This document shows, piece by piece, positions 6,161 through 47,162 of a stretch of DNA of 64,000 nt. The notes under the pieces were generated by a model. It saw only the letters and a program-made list of their open reading frames with translations, searched no databases and had not been told where the DNA came from. The first letter of the stretch is position 1. Each line of letters begins with the position of its first letter. The stretch spans positions 451,438 to 515,437 of the forward strand of contig CAVPHZ010000001.1 of the NCBI GenBank assembly GCA_963704905.1, in the 5' to 3' direction. The stretch is from Candidatus Chisholmbacteria bacterium. Its GTDB lineage: Bacteria; Patescibacteriota; Microgenomatia; UBA1400; Chisholmbacteraceae. Both the position numbers and the translations under genes were made by a program.

Positions 6161-6240
6161 TTGTAGACATGTTTGTTCTTCCTTGATGCTTCTTCATTTC
6201 ATTGATACTTGTGGTATTGTAGAAACAATAACTTTTTTAC

Positions 6241-6413: not shown

Positions 6414-6845
6414 ATGAAGAAAAATGTTTTACTGACTTTTATTGCTTTTCTTGGATTGGCTGTTGGTTTCGTTTATTTTTACTTTACCTCTTTTCAATCT
6501 CCAACCGGTTTGGTTCCATTGAATGAAGTTACTGAAGTCGGTAATGATACGTATCTCTTGCGAGTTGATAAGGGAGATGCTCATCCAGTTACTCATGCCA
6601 GTACATATGCTGAAGGTCAGACAGCATTTGGTGTGCTGCAAGACTATGCAACACAGGAAGATATCAATCTTGTGGCAGAGCATTATGATTTTGGAGTTTT
6701 TGTAAAAGCCATTGATGGGCTTGAAGGTAATGAAGAGCGAGCGTGGATTTATTTTGTGAATGGTGAATCAGGCAGTATCGCGGCCGATCAATATCTATTA
6801 CAATCTGGAGATGTCGTGGAGTGGAGGTATGTCGAACCGAACTAA
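6414..6845 (+). CDS. DUF4430 domain protein (transcobalamin beta-domain-like, putative B12-binding) with N-terminal membrane anchor
   Basis: C-terminal block FGVFVKAIDGLEGNEERAWIYFVNGESGSIAADQYLLQSGDVVEWRY fits the DUF4430 pattern (f..I.G....yW.Y.VNG....ga..y.l..GD.i.W.y); N-terminal hydrophobic helix. Confidence 0.55.
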   Translation: MKKNVLLTFIAFLGLAVGFVYFYFTSFQSPTGLVPLNEVTEVGNDTYLLRVDKGDAHPVTHASTYAEGQTAFGVLQDYATQEDINLVAEHYDFGVFVKAIDGLEGNEERAWIYFVNGESGSIAADQYLLQSGDVVEWRYVEPN

Positions 6846-7437
6846 TACTTTTCGATGGATCTTATTTTTAAGTCTGGCATTCATTGCTTTTCTTGAGCGG
6901 GTGGTGTTTGACTTTGGACCAAATATTGAGTTAGTGACATTGAGCATGCTTCTTGCTAGCGCATATTTGGGATCATCATTTTCTATACTACTTGTGTTGA
7001 TCGTGTTATTTCTCTCTGATATTGTTCTGGGAACAACGAGTATTTTCCTGTTTACTTGGACTGGATTTCTCATACCTGCTTTTGTTTCCTCGCGTCTTTT
7101 TTCAAATATGCAACGAAGAAGGTTGCAGGGCGGATTTCCAGTGCTTTTCGGTTCGGTTCTCGGATTTAGTTCCAACTTATTTTTCTTTACTTGGACAAAT
7201 TTTGGAGTATGGCTGTTAGATGTTTGGGGGATGTATCCTCGAGATCTTTCAGGACTTCTTCTATCGTATATTCATGGATTGCCATTTTTGAAACTTCAGC
7301 TACTAAGCACATTGGTGTTTGTTCCGATTGGGTTTGCTGCTGTAGAAGTGGTACGAGCTCTCGCTCTTCAGCTGAAGGGGGATCGTGCTCTATTACGTGA
7401 ATTACTGCGACGCGCAGGGCTCTTTTCTTCATCGTAA
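6829..7437 (+). CDS. Small polytopic membrane protein, ECF S-component/BtuM-like (putative cobalamin uptake)
   Basis: About 6 TM helices over ~200 aa; ATG at 6829 preceded by GGAGG; 17-nt overlap with the DUF4430 gene; the track ORF 6760 start is probably too early. Confidence 0.35.
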   Translation: MSNRTNTFRWILFLSLAFIAFLERVVFDFGPNIELVTLSMLLASAYLGSSFSILLVLIVLFLSDIVLGTTSIFLFTWTGFLIPAFVSSRLFSNMQRRRLQGGFPVLFGSVLGFSSNLFFFTWTNFGVWLLDVWGMYPRDLSGLLLSYIHGLPFLKLQLLSTLVFVPIGFAAVEVVRALALQLKGDRALLRELLRRAGLFSSS

Positions 7438-7742
7438 ATCATTTCGATTTATCGGACCACTATTTATACCCTTACGGGTATTATTCGATAGGAAAATACT
7501 ATTTTTACTTTGGAGAAGTTTCTATTCTCTTTTTTTCTTCTCCGCTTATTTAAGATGTGTGAACATAAATGTTATGGCTGTTATAGCAAGACTATTAGTA
7601 TTAATTGAGTACAGAATATAATTTCGTTTTCTGAGCATGTTGTTTATTGTTCCTTTCTAGGTAGAAGTAAGGTATTCAATATATTCCTTTCTAACATCTC
7701 ACATCTGGATGATGTATATTGATGCTATTATTACTAGTTGAC

Positions 7743-7790
7743 AGTCTAGGACTAGTGGACTTACGCTCATATTGACACTACGGGTAGTGT
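7743..7790. promoter_or_regulatory. Candidate tandem NrdR boxes upstream of nrdR
   Basis: 16-bp palindrome ACACTACGGGTAGTGT (7775-7790) matches the NrdR-box outer consensus acaCwA....TwGtgt; weaker box AGTCTAGGACTAGTGG (7743-7758); centre-to-centre spacing 32 bp; located ~40-80 bp upstream of the nrdR ATG. Confidence 0.4.
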
Positions 7791-7825
7791 TTTTTTAATC
7801 GTAAAAATAAATACAACCATTTGAC

Positions 7826-8275
7826 ATGAAGTGCCCGTACTGCGGAAGCACAGAGAGCAGTGTACTTGAGAGTCGGCTCAATGAAGATGAGAATTCTATT
7901 CGACGTAGAAGAGAGTGTGGATCATGCGAAAAGCGATTCACTACTTATGAGCGAGTTGAAGGAATCGATTTAACAGTGGTAAAGAAAGATGGAGCACGTG
8001 AGTCTTTTGATAGAGAAAAAATAAAGAAAGGACTCATGAAAGCCACATGGAAACGGCCGGTGACGATAGAAGATATCGAGCGATTGATTGATAATGTCGA
8101 GCAGAAGCTTCGACGAAGGAGAAGCAATGAAATTAAAAGTTGGGAGATTGGCAATATGGTAATGACCAGATTAAAAAGAATTGACCCAGTTGGCTATTTA
8201 CTGTTTGCGAGTGTGTATCGTGATTTTCAGGACATTGATGATTTTATTAGGGAGTTAAAGAAGCTGGAGGATTAG
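7826..8275 (+). CDS. nrdR: Transcriptional repressor NrdR (Zn-ribbon + ATP-cone)
   Basis: MKCPYCGSTESSVLESRLNEDENSIRRRRECGSCEKRFTTYERVE is the canonical NrdR N-terminus; ATP-cone follows; 149 aa. Confidence 0.9.
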   Translation: MKCPYCGSTESSVLESRLNEDENSIRRRRECGSCEKRFTTYERVEGIDLTVVKKDGARESFDREKIKKGLMKATWKRPVTIEDIERLIDNVEQKLRRRRSNEIKSWEIGNMVMTRLKRIDPVGYLLFASVYRDFQDIDDFIRELKKLED

Positions 8276-8391
8276 ACGACTGCGGTGGCGGATCTTTGAT
8301 TGGTTTTATCAATTTAGGAGCCTGCCCTATTCGCCACCAATTCATATAGTAATTAATATGTTTCGATTTGTACTCTAGAGTAAATAACTTT

Positions 8392-10713
8392 ATGTCAGAG
8401 CTAAAACTTTTGCCCAGGACTATTCAGCGCACAGGTGTACCTCTCCGCAGGAAAACTAATGGATTTGCACCGAATGGTTTTCATCCCCAGCAGCTTAATT
8501 GGGTCATTCCCAATGGGGAAGTAAAACATATAAACGGTTTCGTTACCGAACCACATCCAGTTGTTGGTTGGGAGCAGAAGCGAATGAAAAAACGGATGCG
8601 GTTTGCATCTAGGTCTCTATCCACTGGATTGGGGCGTGCGGTTGCGAAGCGAACCATCCTGCGTGGTGAGGAAACATGGGAGGATGTTGCGGAACGGGTT
8701 GCAATTGGAAATACTTCGCTTCTTCCATCACATATGAGAACGCATGGAAAGGAAGAGTATGAGCTTCTAAAAAAACATGTTGCCAATGCGTCCTTGTTGA
8801 TGAGCGGTCGACATTTGCAACATGGAGATGCAACACAAGCAACTCGGAATATGGAGGTGTTTACCAACTGCTCGACAGCTTCAGTGACGTTTATTCTCTT
8901 CTATTTACTCTTAAACGGTTCTGGTGTTGGACGAAGCTATGATGATGATATGTGTGTAGTTGATTGGGACTATATGCCGATTGTACGGTGTGTGTTGAAT
9001 GATAAGCACCCCGATTTTGTTTGGGGTGAGAATGAATCGGTGCGCGAGGCCAGGCATAAATATAACAAGGTGTATTGGTTCGAAGTACCTGACTCGCGAG
9101 AGGGATGGGCACAAGCGATTGAGAAAATAGAGGTGATGGCGTTTGAGCGAAAGTATAAGGATGAGGTGTTGGTTTTAGATTTTTCTAAGGTTCGTGAGAA
9201 GGGTCAGCCCATCCGAGGGATGCAGAACCGGCCGGCATCGGGACCAAAACCTCTGATGCATGCAATAGATAAACTTTCAACGATAAAAAATGCCGGCATG
9301 AAACCGTGGAAGCAGGCGATATTTGCAGATCATTACCTGGCTGAATGTGTATTGGTGGGTGGTGCTCGACGAGCGGCGCGGATTGCTACGAAGACGTGGA
9401 ACGATTCTGATATTTTTGAGTTTATTAATATCAAAAAGGGTGGGTTTTTGTGGAGCGCGAACAACAGCGTGGCTGTGGATGATAAATTCTGGCAATTTAA
9501 AACCAAACATGCGAAAAAGGTGTTTGATGCGGTGATGCACGCCAGCTATCATCATGATACGGGTGAGCCAGGGTTTGTGAATCAACATCGGTTTGTCCAA
9601 AACGATGATAAGTACGATGGGTATTTGGATGGGAAGTTTGCTGTTAGTAACAAATACAAGCCAGGGAAGCAAACACAGAAGATGCTTTCATCAATTGCTA
9701 AAACAGCTTCTTCAAAGCTCTACACCCAAATTCCAAACCCCTGCGGAGAGATAACGCTAAATATGCTTGGCGGATATTGTGTGATTGGTGATGTTGTACC
9801 TTACTTTGCTCCGGACGTCGATGCAGCAGAAGAAGCATATAGAGTGATGACACGGGCACTCATGCGGGTGAATACTATGGATTCGCTTTATAACCGAGAA
9901 GTACAGCGGACGAACAGGATAGGGGTGGGAATGACCGGGATTCATGAGTTTGCCTGGAATTCATTTGGGTATGGTTTCTACGATCTTATTGATGAGGAAA
10001 AGAGTAAAGACTTTTGGAATACACTCTCACGATTCAAGCGAGCGGTGAATGATGAAGCTGAGAAGTATAGCAAGTTTTTAGGGCTTTCAGCACCTCATAC
10101 CAATACGACGATAAAACCGGCTGGAACGACATCAAAACTTTTTGGTCTGAGTGAAGGCGCTCATCTCCCTGCGATGCGTGAGTACATTCGCTGGGTGCAG
10201 TTTCGTAATGACGATCCCCTAGTAAAGCGTTATGAAAAAATGGGTTATCCCGTGAAGCGGTTGAAGACCTATGAAGGTACAACGGTAATTGGATTTCCAA
10301 CTCAACCGGAGACTTGCAGACTTAAGATGGGGAATAAGCTCGTAACTGCCGCAGAAGCAACACCGGAAGAGCAGTTTAAGTGGCTGATGCTTCTTGAAAA
10401 ATATTGGATTGTGGGAGTGGATGAAGAGGGTGTTCCACTTCCAGACACTGGGAATCAAGTATCATACACACTCAAATACAAGAAAGAAAATATCAGTTTC
10501 AGAAAATATAAAAACTTGATGCGGAAGTATCAATCACAAGTGAAATGCGTGAGTGTGATGCCACAGCAAGATGTCACGGCATATGAGTATCAGCCGGAGG
10601 AGGCGGTGACGATTGCTGATTTCATGAAGGTATTGAGCGAAGTCACTGGTGAGATGGATGAGGATATCGATTTGGAAGCGTTGCAATGTGACGCAGGTGC
10701 GTGTCCAATATGA
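8392..10713 (+). CDS. rtpR: Monomeric adenosylcobalamin-dependent ribonucleoside-triphosphate reductase (class II RNR, Lactobacillus leichmannii RTPR type)
   Basis: Blocks RTILRGEETWEDVAERVAIGN, PASGPKPLMHAID, FLWSANNSVAVDDKF, DTGEPGFVN, NPCGEITL (N-x-C-x-E thiyl radical loop) and the C-terminal CDAGACPI redox tail all align with recalled L. leichmannii RTPR; no ATP-cone; track ORF starts at TTG 8368, the ATG at 8392 (MSELK...) is the likelier start. Confidence 0.85.
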   Translation: MSELKLLPRTIQRTGVPLRRKTNGFAPNGFHPQQLNWVIPNGEVKHINGFVTEPHPVVGWEQKRMKKRMRFASRSLSTGLGRAVAKRTILRGEETWEDVAERVAIGNTSLLPSHMRTHGKEEYELLKKHVANASLLMSGRHLQHGDATQATRNMEVFTNCSTASVTFILFYLLLNGSGVGRSYDDDMCVVDWDYMPIVRCVLNDKHPDFVWGENESVREARHKYNKVYWFEVPDSREGWAQAIEKIEVMAFERKYKDEVLVLDFSKVREKGQPIRGMQNRPASGPKPLMHAIDKLSTIKNAGMKPWKQAIFADHYLAECVLVGGARRAARIATKTWNDSDIFEFINIKKGGFLWSANNSVAVDDKFWQFKTKHAKKVFDAVMHASYHHDTGEPGFVNQHRFVQNDDKYDGYLDGKFAVSNKYKPGKQTQKMLSSIAKTASSKLYTQIPNPCGEITLNMLGGYCVIGDVVPYFAPDVDAAEEAYRVMTRALMRVNTMDSLYNREVQRTNRIGVGMTGIHEFAWNSFGYGFYDLIDEEKSKDFWNTLSRFKRAVNDEAEKYSKFLGLSAPHTNTTIKPAGTTSKLFGLSEGAHLPAMREYIRWVQFRNDDPLVKRYEKMGYPVKRLKTYEGTTVIGFPTQPETCRLKMGNKLVTAAEATPEEQFKWLMLLEKYWIVGVDEEGVPLPDTGNQVSYTLKYKKENISFRKYKNLMRKYQSQVKCVSVMPQQDVTAYEYQPEEAVTIADFMKVLSEVTGEMDEDIDLEALQCDAGACPI

Positions 10714-12455: not shown

Positions 12456-14738
12456 TTGTTTATGGATCGTTCAAAAACCTCTCTGATTAAGAAAATTCAA
12501 AAACGGAATGGACGAGTTGTTGATTTTGATGAGTTAAAAATTACCAATGCGATAACGCTTGCTGGTGAGCGGACCGGAGAGATTGGATCATTGGAGGCGA
12601 AACGATTGACTGGGATTGTTGTCCATCTTCTCGGTAAGGCGAATGGTGATCATATTCCTACAGTTGAGTATGTTCAAGATACGGTTGAGCAAGTGCTGAT
12701 GGCAGCGTCACATTTTCAGACTGCAAAAGCGTACATTATTTTTCGAAAAGATCAGGCTCAGCTTCGTGCAGCGCGCCACGTCATTGGAGTGGAAGATGAT
12801 TTGGGAATGACTGTCAATGCCCTTAAAGCAATGGCTAGGCGGTATTTGACACAAGATGCGAAGGGTAACGTGATTGAAACGCCAAGGCAGGCAGTTGAAC
12901 GGGTTGCACGAACGGTTGCCTCTGCAGAACACACCAAGAAAAAAACCTGGGAAAAGAAGTTTGCGGAGATGATTGGCAGTTTTCGATTTGTACCGGCCGG
13001 GTGTTATTTTCGTGGTGCAGGGAGAAAACGCGGTTTACTGGCGAATTGCTTTGTGTTACCTGTCGAAGATGATATGACGAAGATTTTCGACTCGGTGAAA
13101 TGGACGGCACTTATTCATCAAGCTGGTGGCGGAACCGGATATAACTTTTCAAAGTTGCGACCGAAAGGCGATGTGGTTAGTGGAGGTGGCTTTGCTTCTG
13201 GACCAGTATCTTTCATGAAAGCGTTTGATGCGGCAACGGAAATTGTCATGCTGGGAGGCCGTCACCGTGGGGCGAATATGGGAATTCTCAATGCTGATCA
13301 TCCTGATATTTATGATTTCATTACCTGTAAGACTCAAGAGGGGCAGATTAGTAATTTCAATATTTCAATTGGAGCGAGTGATGCGTTTATGGAAGCAGTT
13401 TCAAAAGATAAAGCCTGGAAGCTTTTGAATCCCCGAACTGGTGAGGTGGTCCGTACTGTGGGAGCCAAAAGCATCTTTGATCAAGCTGTAGCGCTCGCAT
13501 GGAAGACGGGAGATCCCGGGATGATTTATCTTGATACGATTAATAAAAATAATGCACTGTATGATGCCTTGGGCCCGATTGATGCAACCAACCCTTGCGG
13601 TGAGCAGCCTCTCCATCCATTTGACGTTTGTAATTTGGGATCGATTAATCTTGCTAGCATGGTTTTGGGAGGGATGGGAAATGGTGTGGTCCGAAGGAGT
13701 GTCGATTGGAAGGGGCTTGAAGAAACTACAAGACTTGCAGTTCGGTTTTTGGATGATGGGATCGATGCAAGTGATTATCCCATTGCTCAAATTGATCAGA
13801 TGGCAAAACGGATTCGTCGAATCGGTATGGGAGTAATGGGTTGGGCGGATATGTTGCTACAGCTACGGATTCGATATGACTCTAATGAAGCTGTGAAGCT
13901 GGCAGAAAAGGTGATGCACTTCATTCAACAGGTGAGTTGGGAAGAAAGCGCAAAGCTGGCTCGCGAGAAGGGTGCATTCCCGCTATGGAAAGAGAGTCAG
14001 TATGCAAAACGACATCCAGTTTTAAGCAAGCGTGGTGCGAAGCGGGGAGTAAAAGTACGTAATGTTGCCATTACCACAATTGCTCCAACAGGAACTATCA
14101 GTATGCTTGCAGATTGTAGCTCGGGTATTGAGCCAGTGTTTGCACTGGCGTATGTTAAAAATGTGATAGACCAACACGGATTGACGTATACGAATAAGTA
14201 TTTTGTACATGAGCTACGATCTACTCTGGGAGATAGTCGAACTGCTCGAGTGGACGATGTCTTACATGATGTATCCAAAACTGGGAGTGTTTCGCATGTA
14301 ACCGGCGTACAAAAATGGATCAAGAGTGTATTTCGGACAGCCCACGATATTTCTCCAGCATGGCATGTGAAGATGCAAGCGGCTTTTCAGAAACATACTG
14401 ACAATGCGGTAAGCAAAACCATCAATTTTGCAGAGTCGGCGACTATTGAAGATATTGAAAAAGCATATTTAACTGCGTGGGAGATGGGTTGCAAAGGCAT
14501 TACTATTTATCGTGATAAGAGCAAGAGCGTTCAGATATTGCAAACTGATACTACTGAGACGACCAAAGAGACTCCAATACAGAGCAAAATTTCAATTACC
14601 CCACTGGCTCTTCAGGCAGAGGTTTCTGGAAATGAGGGACAACAAGAAGATATGTGTCCCGAGTGCGGTGGATTTATGTATTTTGCGGAAGGGTGTAGCA
14701 CTTGTCAGCAGTGCGGGTATAGCAAGTGTGAAGTGTAG
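12456..14738 (+). CDS. nrdJ: Adenosylcobalamin-dependent ribonucleotide reductase, class II NrdJ type, with N-terminal ATP-cone and C-terminal Zn-ribbon
   Basis: ATP-cone KIQKRNGRVVDFDELKITNAI; active-site loop NPCGEQPLHPFDVCNLGSINL; C-terminal CPECGG...CSTCQQCG; 760 aa. Confidence 0.85.
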   Translation: MFMDRSKTSLIKKIQKRNGRVVDFDELKITNAITLAGERTGEIGSLEAKRLTGIVVHLLGKANGDHIPTVEYVQDTVEQVLMAASHFQTAKAYIIFRKDQAQLRAARHVIGVEDDLGMTVNALKAMARRYLTQDAKGNVIETPRQAVERVARTVASAEHTKKKTWEKKFAEMIGSFRFVPAGCYFRGAGRKRGLLANCFVLPVEDDMTKIFDSVKWTALIHQAGGGTGYNFSKLRPKGDVVSGGGFASGPVSFMKAFDAATEIVMLGGRHRGANMGILNADHPDIYDFITCKTQEGQISNFNISIGASDAFMEAVSKDKAWKLLNPRTGEVVRTVGAKSIFDQAVALAWKTGDPGMIYLDTINKNNALYDALGPIDATNPCGEQPLHPFDVCNLGSINLASMVLGGMGNGVVRRSVDWKGLEETTRLAVRFLDDGIDASDYPIAQIDQMAKRIRRIGMGVMGWADMLLQLRIRYDSNEAVKLAEKVMHFIQQVSWEESAKLAREKGAFPLWKESQYAKRHPVLSKRGAKRGVKVRNVAITTIAPTGTISMLADCSSGIEPVFALAYVKNVIDQHGLTYTNKYFVHELRSTLGDSRTARVDDVLHDVSKTGSVSHVTGVQKWIKSVFRTAHDISPAWHVKMQAAFQKHTDNAVSKTINFAESATIEDIEKAYLTAWEMGCKGITIYRDKSKSVQILQTDTTETTKETPIQSKISITPLALQAEVSGNEGQQEDMCPECGGFMYFAEGCSTCQQCGYSKCEV

Positions 14739-21880: not shown

Positions 21881-23707
21881 ATGGTTGATCTGCCCAAGGA
21901 AAATCCATCGTCTCCGTCTGTTGAATTACCACCTGTTGGTGGTGCACCTCCTGATAATCAGGGTCATCAAACTCCTAACATATCAACGCCAACACCTACT
22001 ATTACCTCGACATCACCAGCGACACCGCAAGTTTCTCAACCCTCTCTGACGCAACCGCTGGTTACCCAAGCTCCTCCACCCCCGCCAACACCGGATATGC
22101 CTCAAATTTCTACCGTTTCCGAGGAAATTTCATCAGAAGATGGCGGGAAGAAAAAGCCATGGAAGATCATTTTAATTTTATTCTTGGTGCTGTCCATCCT
22201 TGGTGGTTCACTCCTCACTGGTGCAGGTGTGATGGTAGCGTATGGAAAAATTTCACTTGAGAATGAAGAGCTGAGAAATACCATTGTAAACCTGGTATTC
22301 AGCCTTCCGTTTATTCCTAAGACTCCTGAGTATATTATCGGAAAGTCGGTCATTGCTCACAAAGATGTGTCGAGCGCAACGGTTGAGGCGTCATTGGCGT
22401 CAAGCTCGAAGTCGGTGGCTGACTTGTTTGGGAATCAAAACTTTGATCTGGCCATCAGCGGGCCGGTTGATTTTACTGACGAAAAACAACCAAAAGCCTC
22501 GATTCGGGTGCAGCTGACGAATGAATTTGACGCAGAATTTCGAGTACTGGATGAGGATCTCTATTTTAAGATTGATAAAATTCCGACGGTGGTAACCAGC
22601 ATGTTTACTGCGATGTTGGAAGGAGGGCCGGAGTTTCAAGGATTTGACTCCCTTTTGGGTGTTTGGGTTCATCATTCAATGGAAACTCTTGATACTGAAG
22701 CGAGAAAAACGCTTGAAGAAAATACAGCGGATGAAGATGCATTTGACGAGGCGTATCAAGAATTTGTCGACCGCGTGTTTCGGGCAAAAATTTTACCGAT
22801 TGTTGAAATGACATCGGCTGACGTTGATGGCCATATGACGCATGAATTGTACGTTGATCTTTCTGACCAACTCATAGATGAAGTGTTTGAAGAGATCGAG
22901 GATATCGCTCAGCAGCAGCGAGGGGCAATGCTCGATATTGAAGAAAAAGGGCCACGGCCCTCAGAATTTATAAAGAAACTTCAAATCACGCTTTGGATAG
23001 ATAAAGATTCCTATTATCTTCGCAAAGCTACTGTTGCTACACAATTTGATAACAGTGCATTTCAAGAGAGTCTGCAGGGAAGATCTTCCATGTATGGATC
23101 ATTAGTACCTTCTTTAAACGAGAAAGTGGATATGGTGTTTTCACTGAAGCTTTCTGATATTGGATTACCAGTGTTGGTTGAAGCACCAACAGATGCAATG
23201 TCGCTGGAAGAGTTTATGACAGAGGCGATGCGGTCGTTGGGGTTGGGGTCAATGATGCAGCAATCGATGGGTATGGCACTGTTTTCTAGTGCCAGATTTA
23301 GCGTAGAGCAAGTTTCGAGTGCGGCTTCCTTTTCCTACATCGATAACCAGAGGTATCCAGCGTCTGAGCAAGCCTTACTCGCGTCAGAGTATATTGATTC
23401 TAATTCTACGATTTTCAGCGAAAGTGAAATAAAGTACAAAGTTACAGGTGATGGGCAAGTGGCTGTAATTTATTCTCTTGTGCCTGATTTTAACAGTCCG
23501 GAAGAACCATACTACGGGATCGTGCTTCAGCCACAAGGTACCAACCGAAGTAAAAATTACAGTGGTGATGAGCTGGCTGAGATTCTTACTGAGCATGGAT
23601 TGGGAGTGAATCCGAAATTGCTTGCACCGGTTACGCTGCCTGTTTCACAACCACCAACTTCCGAGCTTGAACCATTTTCGGCATCTTCACAATTTGGGAT
23701 GTTTTAG
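21881..23707 (+). CDS. Pro/Thr-rich membrane-anchored surface protein, hypothetical
   Basis: Low-complexity PTPT/PPPP N-terminus, single TM (LILFLVLSILGGSLLTGAGVMVAY), large C-terminal extracytoplasmic region. Confidence 0.4.
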   Translation: MVDLPKENPSSPSVELPPVGGAPPDNQGHQTPNISTPTPTITSTSPATPQVSQPSLTQPLVTQAPPPPPTPDMPQISTVSEEISSEDGGKKKPWKIILILFLVLSILGGSLLTGAGVMVAYGKISLENEELRNTIVNLVFSLPFIPKTPEYIIGKSVIAHKDVSSATVEASLASSSKSVADLFGNQNFDLAISGPVDFTDEKQPKASIRVQLTNEFDAEFRVLDEDLYFKIDKIPTVVTSMFTAMLEGGPEFQGFDSLLGVWVHHSMETLDTEARKTLEENTADEDAFDEAYQEFVDRVFRAKILPIVEMTSADVDGHMTHELYVDLSDQLIDEVFEEIEDIAQQQRGAMLDIEEKGPRPSEFIKKLQITLWIDKDSYYLRKATVATQFDNSAFQESLQGRSSMYGSLVPSLNEKVDMVFSLKLSDIGLPVLVEAPTDAMSLEEFMTEAMRSLGLGSMMQQSMGMALFSSARFSVEQVSSAASFSYIDNQRYPASEQALLASEYIDSNSTIFSESEIKYKVTGDGQVAVIYSLVPDFNSPEEPYYGIVLQPQGTNRSKNYSGDELAEILTEHGLGVNPKLLAPVTLPVSQPPTSELEPFSASSQFGMF

Positions 23708-23737
23708 CCTCTCATTTTTCCACCATGAAACCCTTAG

Positions 23738-23872
23738 TATAGTTTGCTACACTAACTTGTATGAGTGAGGCGTATACGGAAAAAGATTTTCAAGATCATT
23801 TGGATCAAGAGCATAAAATCACACCTTTTTCAGAGAATCTGAAGAGATCGTTTATGGTGGAAATAATGCATA
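23738..23872 (+). repeat. Duplicated copy (~88% nt identity) of the promoter/5' end of the VIT-family gene at 29078-29210; encodes a truncated 56-aa VIT N-terminus remnant
   Basis: Compare 23744-23868 TTGCTACACTAACTTGTATGAGTGAGGCGTATACGGAAAAAGATTTTCAAGATCATTTGGATCAAGAGCATAAAATCACACCTTTTTCAGAGAATCT with 29081-29185 TTGTTACACTATCTTGAATATGGAATACAGCGAAAAAGATTTTCAGGATCATTTGGATCAAGAGCATAAAATCACACCTTTTTCAGAGTATCT; peptide MSEAYTEKDFQDHLDQEHKITPFSE vs MNMEYSEKDFQDHLDQEHKITPFSE. Confidence 0.6.
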
Positions 23873-23879
23873 TCGATTA

Positions 23880-25268
23880 CTATGACAACAATTTCATTCC
23901 ATTGTTTACGTACTTCTTTAATTGTTTGTAATCAACTAAGTATTTCAATATTTTCTTCGGGCGTAGATAAAATTGTTGATGCGCGTATTTTACCGAGTTA
24001 TTCAGCTTTTCTTCTGGTATTTGTTTGTGTTTTAGAATTGTCATTCGGCTGGGATCAAATACTCTTAACACTGCTTTATGATTAGCTTGTGTTTTCATAG
24101 TTTCATTGTATAAATCGGTACCGTAATCGGGAGTTAATATTGTAAAAGATGCGAAGTCTGGATTAAGTTTCAAAGCAAATTTTATTGTGTTTTGCAGCAT
24201 TGCTTCTGATTCATTTGGGAAACCGAGGATGAAATAACCAAGAGATCTAATTCCCACCTTTCGGCACAAAGCTACAGCATTGAGGATATTTGGAAGCTGT
24301 TTACTTGGAGCAAACTTGTTTAGGGTTTGTTGATTTCCAGACTCGACTCCAATCTGGAGCGTATGACATCCGGCGCGTTTCATTTTCTTTAGTTTTTCTT
24401 CGGTAAGATGAAAACTATGGACATTTGCACTCCAAGAAAAGTTGTAGTTATAGTCGATGAGAAGATCTAAGACGCTGTTGAGGTGTGTTGGATTTGCGTT
24501 GAAGGTAGAGTCTTGAAAGAATATTTCTTTGATGCCGGCTTGATGAATGGCATCGAATTCTTTTTTTAAGTCGTTTCTGTTTCTCGGATAGTAGTTTAGG
24601 ATACTGGCGACGCAAAATTTACAGGTAAAGGGACATCCAAAAGCCGTCAGAACAGTAACCATCGGTTGCTTCCGGGCAACCGGCGTTGAGTATTTGTTTA
24701 ATTTAAATAACTTGTACTGCGGATGTTTGTGAAGAGTTATCTCTGATCCTGGTTTGAGATAGTTAATTCTCCCAAGTTGAATAGATCCATCAGCCTTTCT
24801 TACTGTGAAACTTGGGCTCCACTTGTCATTTGTCATCATCAAGTCTTTTATGCCTGCGTCAAAGAAATTATGGATTATTCCATCGACGAACTTGTACTTG
24901 GTTAGGAACATTTCTGGTTCAATTGTTGGTGTATTTCCTAACACATATAGTTTGGATTTACTGTTTACTACAGCTTGTTGAAGTCCTCTCATGTCTTGAG
25001 GGAAGCTTGCTGTACCGGTCAAACAGACTATACGATCAGGGTTGAAGGAGTTGATGAATTCTTTCACGTTTTTCCAAGTTTGTTTTTCTGCTACCGCGTC
25101 AATAACTTCAAGCTGAATATTTGAGTAGTTTAAATTTCCGGATAGATATAGCAAATCGACAGGAGGCCACAGGTAATCCGTTTTTGAAGTGAAGCAGCAG
25201 TAATTATCGCGAATGATTGTCGCGTGAAATGGTGGATTGAGTAGGAGTACTTTCCGCTTTTGTTTCAT
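23880..25268 (-). CDS. B12-binding-domain radical SAM enzyme (class B, HpnJ/BchE-like)
   Basis: N-terminal Rossmann-like B12-binding region; radical SAM CxxxCxxC as GCPFTCKFC; 462 aa. Confidence 0.8.
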   Translation of the reverse strand: MKQKRKVLLLNPPFHATIIRDNYCCFTSKTDYLWPPVDLLYLSGNLNYSNIQLEVIDAVAEKQTWKNVKEFINSFNPDRIVCLTGTASFPQDMRGLQQAVVNSKSKLYVLGNTPTIEPEMFLTKYKFVDGIIHNFFDAGIKDLMMTNDKWSPSFTVRKADGSIQLGRINYLKPGSEITLHKHPQYKLFKLNKYSTPVARKQPMVTVLTAFGCPFTCKFCVASILNYYPRNRNDLKKEFDAIHQAGIKEIFFQDSTFNANPTHLNSVLDLLIDYNYNFSWSANVHSFHLTEEKLKKMKRAGCHTLQIGVESGNQQTLNKFAPSKQLPNILNAVALCRKVGIRSLGYFILGFPNESEAMLQNTIKFALKLNPDFASFTILTPDYGTDLYNETMKTQANHKAVLRVFDPSRMTILKHKQIPEEKLNNSVKYAHQQFYLRPKKILKYLVDYKQLKKYVNNGMKLLS

Positions 25269-25469
25269 GGAGAAAAGATTATCTTTTAGAATCGGCTGCT
25301 AATTGTGTGCTCTTTCGTTATCGGATAGTCTGGGCTTACATTTTTCTTTATATATTTATAATATAAAAATGCTAGTGGGTGTGCGAATATTTATTTTTAC
25401 CGGTTACTAATCAGTCTACTGCTTTATAACACCCGAAACAGTAGAAGATATCTTCTTTTGGATTAAGGT

Positions 25470-26559
25470 ATGAGATTCGTGAATTTTAGACGACTATTTA
25501 TATTAACTGTAATTTTAACCTTTGGTTTTTTTTTGAGATATAGAGCAGCTCTTTTACAAGATATATGGATTGATGAAGCGACAATTTTCGATGTAAGTCG
25601 TCTGCCAGTGTTGACTCTTCTTCGAAGAGATCATTGGGATACTGCTCATCCCCAACTTTATTATCTTTTTCTCCATTTCTGGATGAAATTGGGAACTACA
25701 CCTCTATTTCTTCGGTTCCCAACGCTGATTACATCAATGACCGCTGGAGTTGTGATATACCGTATCGGAAAACTAGTGCGGAACTCCCGATTTGGCCTAC
25801 TCAGTGTGTATCTTTATTCTATTCATCCATTTTTCGTCAATTTAGGTTTTCAACAGAAGATGTATGGATTTGTAATATTTTTTACTCTTCTTTCGTTTTA
25901 CTCACTTCTCCAGATGTTTAAGAACGAGAAAGAAAATGTGGATGTGGAGCACTATTGTTTTCCATGCTTTGGCGTTTTACTCAGACTATTCCTTTATTTG
26001 GTATTACCTTATCGTTGTGTTGATATCGAGCTTTTTGTTTTTCCAAAAACATTCTAATGAAATAGAGGTACAAAGAATTCTTGTGATTAATCTACTAACG
26101 GCAGTAATCATCGCCATCCATATTCCTAACTTTGTAAGAGGTTTAACTGGTGCACTTGGGTTGGCCAAATATATTGGTGATGTTCATATCTATTGGATAG
26201 CTGATGCACTCAAACAATTTGTATTCTTTTCGACAGATATAAATGACATTTTTGTACTTCTGGTACTTTTTATTAGTGTTCTATCCTTATGGTCGCTTGT
26301 AAAAACTGAGAAGCTAGTGTATCGACGTTTTTTCTTCAAAACTGTTTTTGGATTGCTATTGTTTCCCGTTCTTCTCTCTTTTTTAGCCTCATATATCTCA
26401 CCAATATTTAAAACACGAAATTTGTGGGTGGGAGCACTCTTTCCGATTATTGGCATTACAGCTTTTAGCGAAGTATTTGCACGGAAGTACATAGTTACAA
26501 ATCTTGCAATCTTCTTTTTTATTCTTATTGCTCATATCTGCTTCATATCAAAGAACTAA
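25470..26559 (+). pseudogene. GT-C family membrane glycosyltransferase (GT39/GT83, PMT_2/ArnT-like), apparently split between frames at ~25930-26050
   Basis: N-terminus MRFVNFRRLFILTVILTFGFFLRYRAALLQDIWIDEATIFD is typical of the ArnT/PMT_2 family; 11+ TM helices spread over ORFs 25470-26057 (frame 0) and 25936-26559 (frame 1); combined length with the next ORF (~474 aa) is that of an intact family member. Confidence 0.45.
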
Positions 26560-26893
26560 TTATGAGGGTAATGCTGATTGGAGTGGTTTACGCGATGACA
26601 TTGCAATGGGGGGAGACAAACCACTTATCATTTATGCTGGTGATCGAGCTTGGGAACTTAATTCTCTTTTTCTCTACTATTTTCCTGGATATGATGGCCA
26701 TGTGCCCGTTAGTCAATATAACTTCGTTCATATCCCGAGTAGAGAATTCATTCACAATAATCTGTTATATGATGTTGATGTTCGATCTTCAATAACGATA
26801 TTTTATGATGTGGTGGGTGTAGATCTTCTGGGAGAAATTCAAGGAACATTACGGTGTGGAATCCGAAAATGTCACGATCCGATAGAAATCTAA
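26504..26893 (+). CDS. Hypothetical soluble domain, possibly the frameshifted C-terminal extracytoplasmic domain of the preceding GT-C gene
   Basis: Third frame, overlapping the end of ORF 25936-26559 at a T6 run (CTTCTTTTTTATTC); no independent motif. Confidence 0.25.
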   Translation: MQSSFLFLLLISASYQRTNYEGNADWSGLRDDIAMGGDKPLIIYAGDRAWELNSLFLYYFPGYDGHVPVSQYNFVHIPSREFIHNNLLYDVDVRSSITIFYDVVGVDLLGEIQGTLRCGIRKCHDPIEI

Positions 26894-26933
26894 ATATTTT
26901 AATATAGGATAATCTGGAAATATATTAACCAAT

Positions 26934-27614
26934 ATGGATAACAATAAATACTTAGAAGTGTTATCAGAGCTTCAGAGTTGGATGCGCAGAGAATCGAAGT
27001 TTACTCAGCTCCATCACAAGCTTCGAATAAGGTCGTATCCGTTTCGTTCTCTACTGAACTATCTACCTACGACAGGAAACATTGCAGATATTGGTTGCGG
27101 ATACGGTACCCTAACATTTCTGCTTGCCCGATTGTATCCTGATATTTTTGTGTATGCTTTTGATCCTTCAATGAGGAAGGCAGACGTAGCACGTCGGCTG
27201 CTTGGAAAACTTTCGAATATTTACTTTAGCTCTTACAAGAAAGAATTTTTAGGCTTACCTCAATTGCTTGACGCGGTCGTGATTGTAGATGTGTTATACC
27301 TTCTTTCCTCAAAAGAACGTAAGGATTTAATTAAAAACATGGCTAACTTGCTAAAGAAGGGAGGAAGGATTTACGTCGGGTTTGTTCCACGGCAGTTTCA
27401 TTTCAGATATTTTCTTGCCTTTGTACAAGAGTGGTTTATGGTACGGATTTTTCATTTAACGCATAGCTCGGGTACCATTCTTTCTTTTCAGTCGGTACAG
27501 GAGTTGAAAGACCTGTTTAAGGTCTGTGGCATTCGTTTCTTATCATTGCATTACTTACCAACTTCATTTCCTTTTTACCATCAGCATTACCTAGCAATTG
27601 GAGAGAAATCGTGA
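26934..27614 (+). CDS. Class I SAM-dependent methyltransferase
   Basis: Motif I DIGCGYGTLTFLLA; post-I acidic loop; 226 aa. Confidence 0.7.
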   Translation: MDNNKYLEVLSELQSWMRRESKFTQLHHKLRIRSYPFRSLLNYLPTTGNIADIGCGYGTLTFLLARLYPDIFVYAFDPSMRKADVARRLLGKLSNIYFSSYKKEFLGLPQLLDAVVIVDVLYLLSSKERKDLIKNMANLLKKGGRIYVGFVPRQFHFRYFLAFVQEWFMVRIFHLTHSSGTILSFQSVQELKDLFKVCGIRFLSLHYLPTSFPFYHQHYLAIGEKS

Positions 27615-29014
27615 AAAATCTTTCAATTCTTTTTCCAGTTTATAACGAAGAGGAGGTGTTGTGCCGATCAGTGAATCGGTTGCTTAGGTATCTTAAGAGA
27701 AATAAAAGTAAAGATATTGAGATTATATTGGTCGATAATGGCAGTCATGATCGCACGCCTGAAATTCTAGAGAGATTAGAGAGTCAGTCGCCTTGGATTA
27801 GGGTGTTGTGGTTGCCGCTTCCAAGTTTTGGTGAGGCAGTCCGAATCGGGATTGAGTCAGCTGAGCGGGATTTTATTTTGTTATTAAATGTAGATTGGTG
27901 GGAAGTGAAATTTATTGAGGAGGCGTATGCTGTACGAGATACAGCTGATCTTATAGTTGCTAGCAAAGTGTTAGATCCAACTCTTGATGAGCGGCCGATT
28001 GTACGACAATATTCCACAAGACTTCTCATGTTGGTAATAAGGTTTCTCTTTCGATATCGTGGAACTGATACCCATGGCATAAAATTGGTGAATAGAAAAA
28101 AAATACTTCCGCTTCTAAAAGTGTGTCAGGCTTCTGAACTCCTTGAAACTGAGTTGTTGATACGTGCACAGAACGTCGGATTAAAAATTAAAGAGTTATC
28201 CTGTGCAATTAAAGAGTTAAGACCTCCACGAAAACCTGTGATTTTTCGGTTGAAACAAATTCTTCGAGAATTGATCTCACTTCGGATAATGTTGAAAAAT
28301 AAGTCTTCACTTAGGGAGCCTACAGCTTATCACGTCGATGATTTTGGATATAGCCAAGCGTCTTATTGGAAGACACTCAAATTGCAGAGAACAGGATTAT
28401 TAACAGGTGTGTCTTTAATGGTTACAATGCCTAAATTAGGTGAAACCATTGAACAGCAGAAATACATAAGAGCGCCAATTTTTTTGCATGTAGATCTTGT
28501 GGAAGGAAAGCCAGTCAGTAATTTATCTGCAATTCGTACTCTTGTTGATCAGCAGGGGAATTTTTATCCCTTATTTCATTTTGTGATGAGATTACTGTTA
28601 AAAATAGTAGATCCCAAGGAAGTTGAGAATGAGGTTCAAGCACAGCTTTCACTAGCACGATCAAATGGTTTGGAGATTGTTGGAATTGATACTCATCGCC
28701 ATACTCATATGTTTTCTCCAGTTGCTGAGGTAGTTGAAAAAGTGCGTTTGCAGGAAAAATTGATAAGTCATGGTCGGTACGGTTCATTTGTTACTCTGAG
28801 TTTGTTAGGCTTCTCAAAGAGGTGTCTAGTCCTACTTGCTTCTTTTTATTCTCGACTGATTTATTATTTTGATCTTTCTCTTCCCATGAGTTGGCAGGGA
28901 ACCATTGACAGGTCAGTAGTATTCTTGAGCTGGGAGAAGACCAGCTTTGAAAAGCTTTCACAGGTAGAAAATAAACTAGTAGTTGTCCATCCAGGGTTAG
29001 GATTCGACAAATGA
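27611..29014 (+). CDS. Fusion protein: N-terminal GT2 (polyprenol-phosphate sugar transferase-like) + C-terminal YdjC/ChbG-family carbohydrate deacetylase
   Basis: GT2: LSILFPVYNEEEVL ... ILVDNGSHDRT; C-terminal YHVDDFGYSQAS (cf. YdjC hADDFGls) and GIDTHRHTHMF (cf. DgHqHvH); ATGA-type overlap with the MTase gene. Confidence 0.6.
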   Translation: MKNLSILFPVYNEEEVLCRSVNRLLRYLKRNKSKDIEIILVDNGSHDRTPEILERLESQSPWIRVLWLPLPSFGEAVRIGIESAERDFILLLNVDWWEVKFIEEAYAVRDTADLIVASKVLDPTLDERPIVRQYSTRLLMLVIRFLFRYRGTDTHGIKLVNRKKILPLLKVCQASELLETELLIRAQNVGLKIKELSCAIKELRPPRKPVIFRLKQILRELISLRIMLKNKSSLREPTAYHVDDFGYSQASYWKTLKLQRTGLLTGVSLMVTMPKLGETIEQQKYIRAPIFLHVDLVEGKPVSNLSAIRTLVDQQGNFYPLFHFVMRLLLKIVDPKEVENEVQAQLSLARSNGLEIVGIDTHRHTHMFSPVAEVVEKVRLQEKLISHGRYGSFVTLSLLGFSKRCLVLLASFYSRLIYYFDLSLPMSWQGTIDRSVVFLSWEKTSFEKLSQVENKLVVVHPGLGFDK

Positions 29015-29098
29015 GTGACATTGACGGTGAATATAATGAGTTTTGGGATGATTTAGGATTGCTGTCTGCGAAATGAAGGCAGATTTTGTTACACTATC

Positions 29099-29848
29099 TT
29101 GAATATGGAATACAGCGAAAAAGATTTTCAGGATCATTTGGATCAAGAGCATAAAATCACACCTTTTTCAGAGTATCTAAAGGAAATTGTGTATGGCGGA
29201 AATGATGGGATTGTGACGACCTTTGCAGTGGTGGCTGGGTTTGCAGGAGCTTCAGCAGGTGAACATCTTTCTGGTGTGGGTATTGCCGCTGTGTTGCTGT
29301 TTGGTTTGGCGAATTTGTTTGCGGACGGGACGAGTATGGGATTAGGGAATTTTTTATCCGTTCGCAGTAATCAGGACGTATTCCGCTCTCATAAAGAAAA
29401 GGAACTCAAAGAAATCCGCGAGAATCCTAAGATGGAGGAGCAGGAAACCATTCATCTGCTTAAAAAGCGCGGGTACAGTGAAGATGATGCTAAGGAAATG
29501 GCTAATCTCTATGCAAAGAATGAGAAGTATTGGCTCGAGTTTATGATGAAGCAAGAGTTAGAGATGGCTGATCCGGAGGGAGAGAATCCACTGTCGACAG
29601 CATTGGCGACATTTGCTTCATTTATTGCTTTTGGGTTTATTCCGCTGGCGCCATATTTTATTTTGCAGAAGGTTGACCATACATTTTATTACTCTATCCT
29701 GTTTACGTTTGTGGCTCTGGTTCTTCTCGGGTTGCTGCGGTGGAAAGTGACAAAGGAAAAAATAATCCGATCGGTAGGGGAAGTGGTATTCATTGGGGGC
29801 GTTTCAGCCTTTGTTGCGTTTTTCGTCGGGACGTTTTTTAGAGGGTAA
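29099..29848 (+). CDS. VIT1/CCC1 family Fe/Mn transporter
   Basis: EIVYGGNDGIVTTFAVVAGFAGA signature; central cytoplasmic acidic metal-binding region; C-terminal TM bundle. Confidence 0.75.
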   Translation: MNMEYSEKDFQDHLDQEHKITPFSEYLKEIVYGGNDGIVTTFAVVAGFAGASAGEHLSGVGIAAVLLFGLANLFADGTSMGLGNFLSVRSNQDVFRSHKEKELKEIRENPKMEEQETIHLLKKRGYSEDDAKEMANLYAKNEKYWLEFMMKQELEMADPEGENPLSTALATFASFIAFGFIPLAPYFILQKVDHTFYYSILFTFVALVLLGLLRWKVTKEKIIRSVGEVVFIGGVSAFVAFFVGTFFRG

Positions 29849-43590: not shown

Positions 43591-43834
43591 CAATTCTGCT
43601 GATCTTAGTGACGGAGATGAAGAAAGTGAAACATCCATATGATAAAGGGGTGAAGGCGGTTCGGGGATTGGATTTTTAGTTCAGGCTATTTCTATATTTT
43701 TCTCCAGTGTTCATTCGACCATTTGTCTGTGTTATCATGAATAGGTATGGATACATCTGGTGGAGGAGATCCACAAACATCACAACCTAATGATTCGGCT
43801 CAGGGTGAGCACTTTGATTGACTCAGGATAGGGA

Positions 43835-44689
43835 ATGTTTCAGCACAGCCATCTGCGCAACATCTCAGCTTGTTCAAGCCACTCCCGCGCCAGCACAAAT
43901 GCCGCAACCACAAGTTTCTCCACCACTGTCACAACGCAAGTACCCCAGTGCAAGGATCTCTTCGATCAATCTCAGGGCAAGCAAGCTGATCCACCTCAGC
44001 CATCGCAGCCTTTCGTCGCTTCAACTCCTCATCCTCAGGGTAAACCATTCGCAGAATCAGCTCCTGAGGGTAAACAACCTCAGGATGTACAAGTTCAGGC
44101 ACAACCAACAGCTCAAGTACAAGAACCAGCATCACCTGCAATGCCATCAACTACTCCTGCTCAGCCGACCGTTCCTCCAGCTCCGCCTGAACCTCAAGTT
44201 ACATCTCCACCTCAATCTGAGCCTACTACTCAGCCAGTTGCACAACCTCCACCTCAACTTGAACCTGAAATAGGAAGACCTGCTGGAGCGAAGGAAGGGG
44301 AGTTTTTGAGCGGCGGAGATGTGACGCCGGTCGAGCATGTGCCAGTGGTTGAACTGCGAGAACCTGGTGAATTACCAACCGAAGTTGAGGGGTGGATTGA
44401 GCGGGCTGAGCATGATGATGTTGAGGAGATGAAGCCGATTAAAGTTGACGGACAAACAGTAGTTTCATCAGCTACTCCGCAAAATGTTAAGGTTACTTTA
44501 CCTCTGGAGAAGTCCGAGATCAAACAAGGTTTGCAATATAAGGTGGCAGACAGTGTTCGTTGGCTGGCGCAATGGTGTATTCGGCTGGTGGATAAATACA
44601 AAGGGCAAGTCGGATACAAACAACCACAACCTAAAGATATGCCGACTCCCGCAGTTAATCACGAGGAACGTAGTACTCAGCAACAATAA
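43835..44689 (+). CDS. Pro/Gln-rich low-complexity protein, hypothetical; the true start is uncertain (a short ORF at 43749 in another frame has a similar composition)
   Basis: PQPSQP/QVQAQP/PPAPPEP tracts followed by an ordered C-terminal ~130 aa; immediately upstream of the VirD4-like ATPase gene. Confidence 0.4.
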   Translation: MFQHSHLRNISACSSHSRASTNAATTSFSTTVTTQVPQCKDLFDQSQGKQADPPQPSQPFVASTPHPQGKPFAESAPEGKQPQDVQVQAQPTAQVQEPASPAMPSTTPAQPTVPPAPPEPQVTSPPQSEPTTQPVAQPPPQLEPEIGRPAGAKEGEFLSGGDVTPVEHVPVVELREPGELPTEVEGWIERAEHDDVEEMKPIKVDGQTVVSSATPQNVKVTLPLEKSEIKQGLQYKVADSVRWLAQWCIRLVDKYKGQVGYKQPQPKDMPTPAVNHEERSTQQQ

Positions 44690-44701
44690 ACTTATCTTAA
44701 T

Positions 44702-47090: not shown

Positions 47091-47162
47091 GCGCCCGTAG
47101 CTCAGGGGTAGAGCACCATGCTTATAACATGGGGGTCGATGGTTCGAAACCATCCGGGCGCA
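47091..47162 (+). tRNA. tRNA-Ile (anticodon UAU)
   Basis: Manual cloverleaf: acceptor GCGCCCG/CGGGCGC, D-stem GCTC/GAGC, anticodon stem CCATG/CATGG with loop CTTATAA, T-arm GATGG TTCGAAA CCATC; GGTATAAT -10 box just upstream. Confidence 0.6.

Follow-up and report, generated by a model that had tools for sequence, protein, structure and literature searches.

The window analysed here is a stretch of 64,000 nucleotides (nt) from a Candidatus Chisholmbacteria bacterium (contig CAVPHZ010000001.1, positions 451,438 to 515,437), and our subject is a cassette of four genes that occupies 23.88-29.01 kb of it. The first gene lies on the reverse strand (23880-25268, 1389 nt) and encodes a radical S-adenosylmethionine (rSAM) enzyme of 462 amino acids (aa). 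The other three are all on the forward strand. They encode a polytopic glycosyltransferase of the GT-C class (PMT_2/ArnT-like; 25470-26893), whose reading frame is broken by two +1 frameshifts, a class I S-adenosylmethionine-dependent methyltransferase (26934-27614, 681 nt, 226 aa), and a fusion protein (27611-29014, 1404 nt, 467 aa). An AT-rich spacer of 201 nt (25269-25469) separates the divergent rSAM and GT-C genes. The fusion protein is composed of a domain of glycosyltransferase family 2 (GT2; aa 1-235, 27611-28315) and a YdjC-type carbohydrate de-N-acetylase domain (aa 241-467, 28331-29014). Aside from the GT-C gene, all reading frames are intact and the catalytic residues of their products are conserved. 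We interpret the cassette as a candidate carrier-lipid pathway for amino-sugar decoration of the cell envelope.

Domain families were assigned by Pfam gathering scores and NCBIfam curated cutoffs. An initial annotation, made from the sequence of the window, had described a GT2 enzyme and a YdjC-type deacetylase within one polypeptide, and searches against the two Pfam models it named bear this out. PF00535 matches aa 5-111 of the fusion protein with 63.5 bits, PF04794 matches aa 241-386 with 96.1 bits (gathering score 29.7 bits), and the two motifs quoted in that annotation, YHVDDFGYSQAS and GIDTHRHTHMF, are both found. No transmembrane segment was predicted on the fusion protein. When the GT2 subfamily profile was compared with PDB sequences, the best full-domain matches were DPMS (5mlz, 130.7 bits), GtrB (104 bits) and ArnC (99 bits). 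The top 20 Foldseek matches of the AlphaFold2 model (predicted local distance difference test, pLDDT, 83) are almost all ArnC, GtrB and DPMS, and its C-terminal domain matches ChbG (7vi8). DPMS, GtrB and ArnC all glycosylate a polyprenyl monophosphate. The profile and the model both place the GT2 domain in the polyprenyl-phosphate glycosyltransferase type.

The PF04794 match covers only profile positions 5-146 of 266, and the C-terminal third of the YdjC domain is family-specific. The domain retains the DDFG, LH(V/I)xL and HxH motifs. Residues Asp243/Asp244, His293 and His364/His366 are invariant in nine fusion proteins and align with the motifs of HpnK. The GT2-YdjC arrangement, judged from homologues, is uncommon and not unique: an exhaustive HMMER search gave about 40 such proteins of 430-490 aa among the best 150 representatives, and an operon of unfused genes is the commoner form. 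The initial annotation had taken the whole system to be undescribed. Our literature searches on YdjC with radical SAM enzymes in bacteria of the candidate phyla radiation (CPR), and on B12-dependent or other radical SAM enzymes with polyprenyl or undecaprenyl phosphate, found no description of it, but the fusion itself is less unique than had been assumed. Five further proteins (P0190, P0283, P0231, P0207 and P0238) carry homologues of the GT2 domain with 35-40% identity, fused to PMT_2, DUF6057 or a class I methyltransferase; the partner is PMT_2 in P0190 and P0283, and the methyltransferase in P0207 and P0238. These Rosetta-stone fusions link the GT2, GT-C and methyltransferase functions to one another.

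The rSAM enzyme contains the motif GCPFTCKFC and matches PF04055 with 79.6 bits (gathering score 29.5 bits), and its cluster-binding residues Cys212, Cys216 and Cys219 are invariant. The initial annotation had called it a divergently oriented, B12-binding rSAM enzyme. The motif, the rSAM domain and the orientation hold, whereas the B12-binding domain PF02310 scores 17.7 bits, below its gathering score of 32.1 bits. A Rossmann-like N-terminal domain is nevertheless confidently present in the AlphaFold2 model (pLDDT 88.8). More than 400 homologues were detected, and those with 44-54% identity come mostly from Microgenomates and Roizmanbacteria. The family occurs in CPR bacteria, Omnitrophota, Aminicenantes, Planctomycetota and DPANN archaea and is covered by no curated family model. 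In scans of public genomes and metagenome contigs with rSAM alignments, only distant homologues (at most 40% identity) were among the matches listed, which included neither close relatives nor the genome of the window itself. The NCBIfam models that match the enzyme are HpnJ (154.4 bits, cutoff 577.6), BchE (115 bits), PhpK (113 bits) and AprD4 (68.2 bits, cutoff 500).

The HpnJ match, which spans the full length of the rSAM enzyme, bears on the reading given in the initial annotation, namely an HpnI/HpnK/HpnJ-like remodelling of a lipid head group. By this account, GlcNAc (N-acetylglucosamine) would be placed on a lipid hydroxyl and deacetylated, and the rSAM enzyme would contract the sugar ring to an aminocyclitol ether, as in the proposals for calditol, which involves Cds, and for the cyclitol ether of bacteriohopanetetrol. 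The order of steps agrees with the proposed substrate of HpnJ, a glucosamine produced by GlcNAc transfer and subsequent deacetylation (PMC13459092). HpnJ is the top NCBIfam match of the rSAM enzyme, HpnK is that of the YdjC domain, and the B12-binding signature of a true HpnJ is likewise sub-threshold (22 bits). All of the scores are far under the family cutoffs, however. The true hpnI, hpnJ and hpnK of the Mycetohabitans rhizoxinica megaplasmid served as controls. On the HpnJ model (TIGR03471), against which the initial annotation had proposed to search, true HpnJ reaches 843.9 bits, compared with 154.4 bits for the rSAM enzyme of the window and 168 bits for a CPR ortholog. On this model, 150-282 bits are also reached by unrelated B12-rSAM paralogs that are encoded beside GT2 genes in other phyla. 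A specific relationship to HpnJ was rejected on this ground, generic paralogs matching the model equally well or better, and because of these scores HpnJ as top match indicates superfamily membership only.

The other comparisons with the hopanoid proteins point the same way. In a neighbour-joining tree the rSAM enzyme belongs to its own 26-sequence clade (100% bootstrap). HpnJ forms a clade with a protein of a Lawsonia plasmid (89%), and the sister link between this clade and that of the rSAM enzyme reaches 27%. The rSAM enzyme is 23.2% identical to HpnJ, 23.2% to BchE and 25.3% to a generic paralog. The initial annotation had named clustering with BchE or methyltransferase rSAM enzymes, far from HpnJ, as a ground for refutation; the enzyme does stand far from HpnJ, but it does not cluster with BchE either. 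The motifs RDxYC(C/S)xxSK and AGCHT of its clade are not present in HpnJ. For the YdjC domain, the HpnK model gives 59.3 bits against a cutoff of 232.6 and the ChbG model gives 54 bits, likewise below its cutoff, and BLAST aligns it with true HpnK over the N-terminal 134 residues at 26.9% identity. True HpnI is of the GT21 type (PF13506, 144 bits), whereas the GT2 domain of the window matches only PF00535 and shows no similarity to true HpnI by BLAST. Judged by sequence, neither the rSAM enzyme nor either domain of the fusion protein belongs to the HpnI, HpnJ or HpnK family. Moreover, HpnJ-model matches are confined to genomes having both squalene-hopene cyclase and HpnH (10.1101/2025.07.29.667474), and no squalene-hopene cyclase gene was noticed among the examined open reading frames (ORFs) of the window, the only 64 kb of this genome in view. 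Head-group remodelling would also leave no role for the GT-C protein, which is always present, and GT-C enzymes would not normally take as donor a carbocycle formed by ring contraction and held in a phosphate ester. We consider the hopanoid-like reading very unlikely.

With regard to structure, the rSAM model is nearest to AprD4 (TM score 0.79, E = 1e-23, 17% identity, similar length), which is also the sole noteworthy match among PDB sequences (58 bits). The likeness is structural only, as the enzyme falls outside the AprD4 family (NF033070; 68.2 against 500 bits). The glucosamine ring of paromamine is installed as GlcNAc and then deacetylated. AprD4 is an rSAM diol dehydratase that acts on this ring (PMC5461906). 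Since AprD4 and HpnJ both work on a glucosamine residue, the comparison supports, by analogy, the idea that the CPR enzyme would also attack a deacetylated sugar ring. It does not reveal the type of reaction.

One candidate reaction is C-methylation. Under this alternative the carrier-lipid logic is unchanged, the rSAM enzyme would be a cobalamin-dependent (class B) methyltransferase, and the product would be a C-methyl amino sugar which, with the class I methyltransferase, would also carry an N- or O-methyl group, as with GenK, GenD1 and GenN in gentamicin biosynthesis. The architecture of a Rossmann-like domain followed by an rSAM barrel agrees with such an enzyme, and so do the structural neighbours that rank after AprD4, which are the cobalamin enzymes TsrM, MgmA, OxsB, CysS and TokK. 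Related loci contain arrays of clear B12-rSAM paralogs beside GT2 genes, and GenK methylates a glucosamine-derived ring (PMC4039129). Models of the PhpK family and of other methyltransferases match as well, but only within the rSAM core. The B12-binding score of 17.7 bits compares poorly with the 57-82 bits of neighbouring paralogs, and the best structural match, AprD4, is cobalamin-independent and binds no cobalamin (PMC12931638). Supply of the cofactor is in favour of the alternative. The region 6192-10713 of the window contains a cobalamin riboswitch (Rfam, 37.5 bits) ahead of genes with DUF4430 and DUF6580 domains, which likely serve B12 uptake; genes for an NrdR-like repressor and for a class II ribonucleotide reductase that depends on B12 come next. 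The riboswitch-led genes and the reductase indicate that the cofactor is available to the cell, which clearly takes up B12 and makes use of it. Taking both sides together, we regard C-methylation by a class B enzyme as rather unlikely.

The methyltransferase gene ends within the fusion gene, its stop codon overlapping the GTG start of the fusion protein by 4 nt, in agreement with the coupling stated in the initial annotation. The protein is matched by several class I models, among them Methyltransf_25 (47.9 bits). It aligns over almost its entire length (about 200 aa) with its counterparts in CPR operons, namely those of loci L172 (29.6% identity, E = 1e-29) and L169 (23%, E = 2.5e-19). On these alignments the methyltransferase is orthologous where present, yet dispensable.

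The GT-C gene is spread over three frames (25470-26057, 25936-26559 and 26504-26893), which corresponds to two +1 frameshifts. PMT_2 (PF13231) matches the first piece only, with 40.2 bits against a gathering score of 26.1 bits. The initial annotation was right about this match and about the location, but it missed both frameshifts and the gene is not one ORF. In the source annotation only a 195-aa product is called here. Shortening two homopolymer runs by a single base each, A4 at 25931-25934 and T6 at 26515-26520, restores the frame. The conceptually repaired protein has 472 aa and aligns end to end with intact orthologs of 479-516 aa. It shares with them the motifs W(R/I)DE and HWDTxHP..FLHFW, the former being found in all orthologs, and tblastn with the intact orthologs aligns across the first frame change. 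A word-indexed homologue search with the N-terminus of the protein retrieved only itself.

The frameshifts may reflect decay, assembly error or reversible switching. A Roizmanbacteria ortholog offers a parallel: between L169 (at about 10523) and L170/L171, which stem from two assemblies of one population, the sole difference over 1.7 kb is T7 versus T8, which breaks the frame and gives 438 + 81 aa in one assembly. Either phase variation or a sequencing error in the homopolymer could account for this difference. Logan short-read contigs of run ERR12037370 that encode identical rSAM and methyltransferase-plus-fusion proteins stop on either side of the GT-C gene; they span about 23806-25864 and about 26930-29146, with coordinates inferred from gene positions. 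Such ends hint at sequence heterogeneity or low coverage at this gene. Three other sets of overlapping ORFs in the window were examined and no further split gene was confirmed: ORFs 6414/6760 match different Pfam domains and represent two separate genes, and the sets 39791/40261 and 43835/44484 have no Pfam match. Promoter-like hexamers were found on both strands of the spacer upstream of the GT-C and rSAM genes (25335-25362 on the forward strand, with 10 of 12 matches, and 25387-25358 on the reverse strand, by consensus scan only). The spacer has fewer such sites than shuffled controls, so the evidence for promoters is weak.

The whole cassette is flanked by an imperfect direct repeat, detected by repeat search and alignment. 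Its core of 83 nt (23762-23844 and 29100-29182) has 87% identity and a spacing of 5338, and alignment widens the repeat to about 180 nt with an identity of 81-87%. The left copy lies at 23693-23870 and the right copy at 29042-29207, both in forward orientation. Each copy consists of the 3' end of a gene for a 608-aa protein, an intergenic stretch and the first ~110 nt of a VIT1 gene. In the left copy the VIT1 fragment is decayed and frameshifted by a 1-nt deletion. In the right copy it is the 3' end of the 608-aa gene that survives only as a remnant, whereas the VIT1 gene (29099-29848; PF01988, 211 bits) has its 5' end intact. The guanine-plus-cytosine content is 0.376 within the cassette and 0.40-0.43 in the flanks. 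Because of the ~180-nt flanking repeat and the lower guanine-plus-cytosine content, the cassette is a discrete insertion, a unit of about 5.2 kb, possibly acquired by single-crossover integration. It is owing to this insertion that the 608-aa gene (21881-23707) adjoins the cassette. Its product is rich in Pro, Ser and Thr in the N-terminal region, after which comes a single hydrophobic segment; it shows no Pfam match and may be a surface protein.

These borders raise a further alternative, that in this genome the cassette is a decaying, non-functional island of horizontal origin. The repeat, the deviating base composition, the two GT-C frameshifts and the position of the cassette away from any glycan cluster are all in line with decay. 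On the other hand, the remaining genes, of 1389, 681 and 1404 nt, have unbroken reading frames and encode conserved catalytic residues. Each frameshift falls within a homopolymer run and is undone by removing a single base, so that assembly error or reversible on/off variants could lie behind it, and an ortholog shows T7 in one assembly and T8 in another for the same gene. We give this possibility some weight but think it doubtful.

A strong argument for a common function comes from related genomes. Close contexts were obtained by exact-protein look-ups of five rSAM relatives, and with the window they make six. In all six of these independent Microgenomates-type contexts, GT2, YdjC, an orthologous rSAM enzyme (about 50% identity) and a GT-C-like protein of about 500 aa are clustered, in accordance with the co-occurrence presumed in the initial annotation. 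Specifically, a Roizmanbacteria locus (L169-171) has GT2 (252 aa), YdjC (242 aa), methyltransferase (221 aa), rSAM (465 aa) and a 506-aa membrane protein; L172/173 has GT2, YdjC, rSAM, methyltransferase and a 500-aa protein; L174 has GT2, YdjC, rSAM and a 479-aa protein, without methyltransferase; L006 has a GT2-YdjC fusion (489 aa), rSAM (461 aa), a 516-aa protein and a short-chain dehydrogenase/reductase (SDR); and L177 has a fusion (467 aa), a gap of ~4 kb, rSAM (465 aa) and a 730-aa protein of the GT-C family (358 bits with the family hidden Markov model). The large membrane proteins of the related loci are of the same family as the GT-C protein of the window (phmmer, E = 1e-18 to 1e-23). 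The gene set is retained despite differences in order, orientation, fusion state, spacing and presence of the methyltransferase, and this persistence is strong evidence that its members are functionally linked. In three other loci (L001-L003) a fusion gene is followed by a GT-C gene with no rSAM gene. As the pair thus occurs on its own, the core of the system appears to be GT2, YdjC and GT-C, with the rSAM enzyme as an add-on tailoring step. The orthologous operons are placed within glycan clusters that contain GT4, Wzy_C, Bac_transf, WecG and SDR epimerase genes.

With modest confidence, and by analogy to the systems compared below, we favour the reading that the products of the cassette form a carrier-lipid pathway by which a tailored amino sugar is added to the cell envelope. 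The context supports this reading well, while homology to the hopanoid system finds no support. The proposal of the initial annotation that a deacetylated and perhaps tailored amino sugar is built on polyprenyl phosphate and transferred at the surface fits the GT2 type, the YdjC motifs, the GT-C partner and the conserved gene set. Gene content, domain families, clustering, fusions, insertion borders and the two GT-C frameshifts are direct observations; all chemical steps that follow we infer. The soluble DPMS/GtrB/ArnC-like GT2 domain would, as its family suggests, use a nucleotide sugar to load polyprenyl phosphate with an N-acetyl-hexosamine on the cytoplasmic side of the membrane. The fused YdjC domain would then strip the N-acetyl group to give polyprenyl-phosphate-hexosamine, as NaxD and LgmC do; its family and the fusion suggest this step. 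The rSAM enzyme would carry out radical chemistry on the ring of the amino sugar while it is still lipid-linked. Since the rSAM enzyme is in every case accompanied by a GT-C transferase acting after it, we prefer deoxygenation/dehydration, epimerisation, C-methylation or another reaction in which the anomeric phosphate linkage survives, and consider ring contraction less likely. The class I methyltransferase, an accessory that is missing from some orthologous operons, may N- or O-methylate the sugar. After passage across the membrane by a putative flippase, the PMT_2/ArnT-like GT-C protein would transfer the sugar to an extracytoplasmic acceptor. As the operons of the relatives sit in glycan clusters, their acceptor is probably a surface protein or a glycopolymer of the wall.

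Several observations weigh against this carrier-lipid reading. As the GT-C gene is frameshifted twice, the final transfer is probably inactive in the assembled genome, and the pathway may not operate here in the form described. The GT-C assignment itself depends on one above-threshold PMT_2 match, conserved motifs and the fusions of homologues: the intact orthologs have no Pfam match and no match among PDB sequences, and a profile built from them likewise matched nothing among PDB sequences. The GT2 domain has N-V-D at the place of the canonical DxD, a variation typical of its subfamily. No GtrA-like flippase was found among the small ORFs tested in the window, and no glycan cluster lies beside the cassette within these 64 kb. 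In addition, the link between rSAM and GT2 is tight only in the CPR clade: of 160 distant rSAM loci, just 25 have a GT2 gene directly beside the rSAM gene, and 49 have one within 3 kb. Finally, the acceptor lipid of the GT2 domain, the identity of the sugar and the final acceptor are all assigned by analogy, and the pathway functions are predictions.

Related gene neighbourhoods occur outside the Microgenomates-type loci. A Saccharibacteria contig (CAZHQQ010000006.1; L013, 4559-11795) has, in order, B12-rSAM, PMT_2, GT2, rSAM and PMT_2 genes. Three loci from other phyla (L021, L148 and L092) show arrays of three B12-rSAM genes round one small GT2 gene, and an Aminicenantes contig has YdjC, methyltransferase, rSAM and GT2 genes together. 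The Saccharibacteria locus and the arrays suggest that radical tailoring of lipid-linked sugars recurs in several lineages. The Lawsonia intracellularis plasmid NC_008012.1 (L176, 9169-24515) contains GT2 genes, two DUF2304 genes, a SIS-domain gene, two rSAM genes, five class I methyltransferase genes and a gene for a DUF2142 membrane protein; one of its two rSAM proteins reaches 376 bits on the HpnJ model, below the cutoff. This is another cluster of the polyprenyl-phosphate-sugar type with rSAM tailoring in a non-hopanoid context, and radical tailoring beside polyprenyl-phosphate-sugar synthases may be a broader theme. We further put forward, as a tentative extension, that Microgenomates-type CPR bacteria, and through the wider rSAM family many other phyla, edit a sugar attached to polyprenyl phosphate by radical chemistry to give a so far undescribed deoxy, C-methyl or carbocyclic amino sugar at the cell surface, and that expression of the GT-C transferase is turned on and off as homopolymer tracts change in length; at present we doubt this more than we believe it.

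Elsewhere in the window, a second ribonucleotide reductase large subunit with an ATP-cone is encoded at 12456-14738. A gene for tRNA-Ile with the anticodon TAT (UAU), an anticodon uncommon in bacteria, lies at 47091-47163, and its neighbours are two tRNA genes with CAT anticodons at 48994 and 49160. A 776-aa protein (44702-47032) has weak coupling-protein domains of the TraG/VirD4/TrwB type and is preceded by overlapping ORFs without Pfam match (43818-44894); these genes may belong to a conjugative or type IV secretion-like region.

We know of no rSAM enzyme that has been shown to act on a monosaccharide linked to polyprenyl phosphate. If the carrier-lipid reading is true, the cassette would add a new tailoring step to the widespread scheme of side-chain glycosylation by GT2 and GT-C proteins, and an uncurated rSAM family of more than 400 homologues across several phyla would gain a function that can be tested. 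For CPR biology, it would point to a specific and portable envelope decoration in host-attached organisms whose surface chemistry is barely known.

Four groups of known systems can be compared with the cassette. The HpnI/HpnK/HpnJ system has the same order of chemistry and an rSAM enzyme with a weak B12-like N-terminal domain, and HpnJ and HpnK are the best-scoring named models. It differs in that the scores are far below cutoffs, HpnI is of the unrelated GT21 type, the rSAM enzymes belong to different clades and the Hpn system has no GT-C protein, while the window shows no hopanoid context. AprD4/AprD3, a diol dehydratase and a reductase for the C3' deoxygenation of paromamine, provides the enzyme structurally nearest to the rSAM protein and one whose substrate is a glucosamine ring. 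Aside from the low identity (17%) and score (68 against 500 bits), the cassette has no dedicated reductase and its proposed substrate is lipid-linked; SDR genes adjoin some orthologous operons (L006, L172/173 and L177). ArnC/ArnD/ArnT, GtrA/GtrB/GtrV, CsbB/YfhO and GacI/GacL share with the cassette the pairing of a GT2 polyprenyl-phosphate-sugar synthase with a GT-C protein, and ArnC and GtrB are top structural matches of its GT2 domain. ArnD belongs to a different deacylase family than YdjC, and to our knowledge none of these four systems contains an rSAM enzyme.

The nearer precedent, closer than ArnC/ArnD/ArnT, is that of NaxD and LgmC. In Francisella, FlmF2 is the GT2 synthase and FlmK its ArnT-like GT-C partner, and LgmA and LgmB have the corresponding roles in Bordetella. 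FlmF2/NaxD/FlmK and LgmA/LgmC/LgmB follow the logic proposed for the cassette, in which a GT2 synthase of polyprenyl-phosphate-N-acetylhexosamine is followed by a YdjC deacetylase working on the lipid-linked sugar and by an ArnT-like GT-C transferase that passes on the free amino sugar outside the membrane. NaxD is a YdjC-superfamily deacetylase of undecaprenyl-phosphate-N-acetylgalactosamine that is needed before transfer of the sugar to lipid A (PMC11279074), and lgmA, lgmB and lgmC are all required for glucosamine on Bordetella lipid A (PMC4993483). The likeness is one of gene set. By domain assignment, a GT2 protein of the polyprenyl-phosphate-N-acetylhexosamine synthase type, a YdjC deacetylase and a GT-C protein co-occur in the window and in the related contexts. 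The cassette differs from the NaxD and LgmC systems in its host, a Microgenomates-type CPR bacterium in which lipid A is an unlikely acceptor, in the fusion of GT2 and YdjC in one soluble polypeptide, and in the addition of an rSAM enzyme and a class I methyltransferase. It is the added rSAM enzyme that, judging from its predicted gene products, sets the cassette apart from the known carrier-lipid systems for amino sugars.

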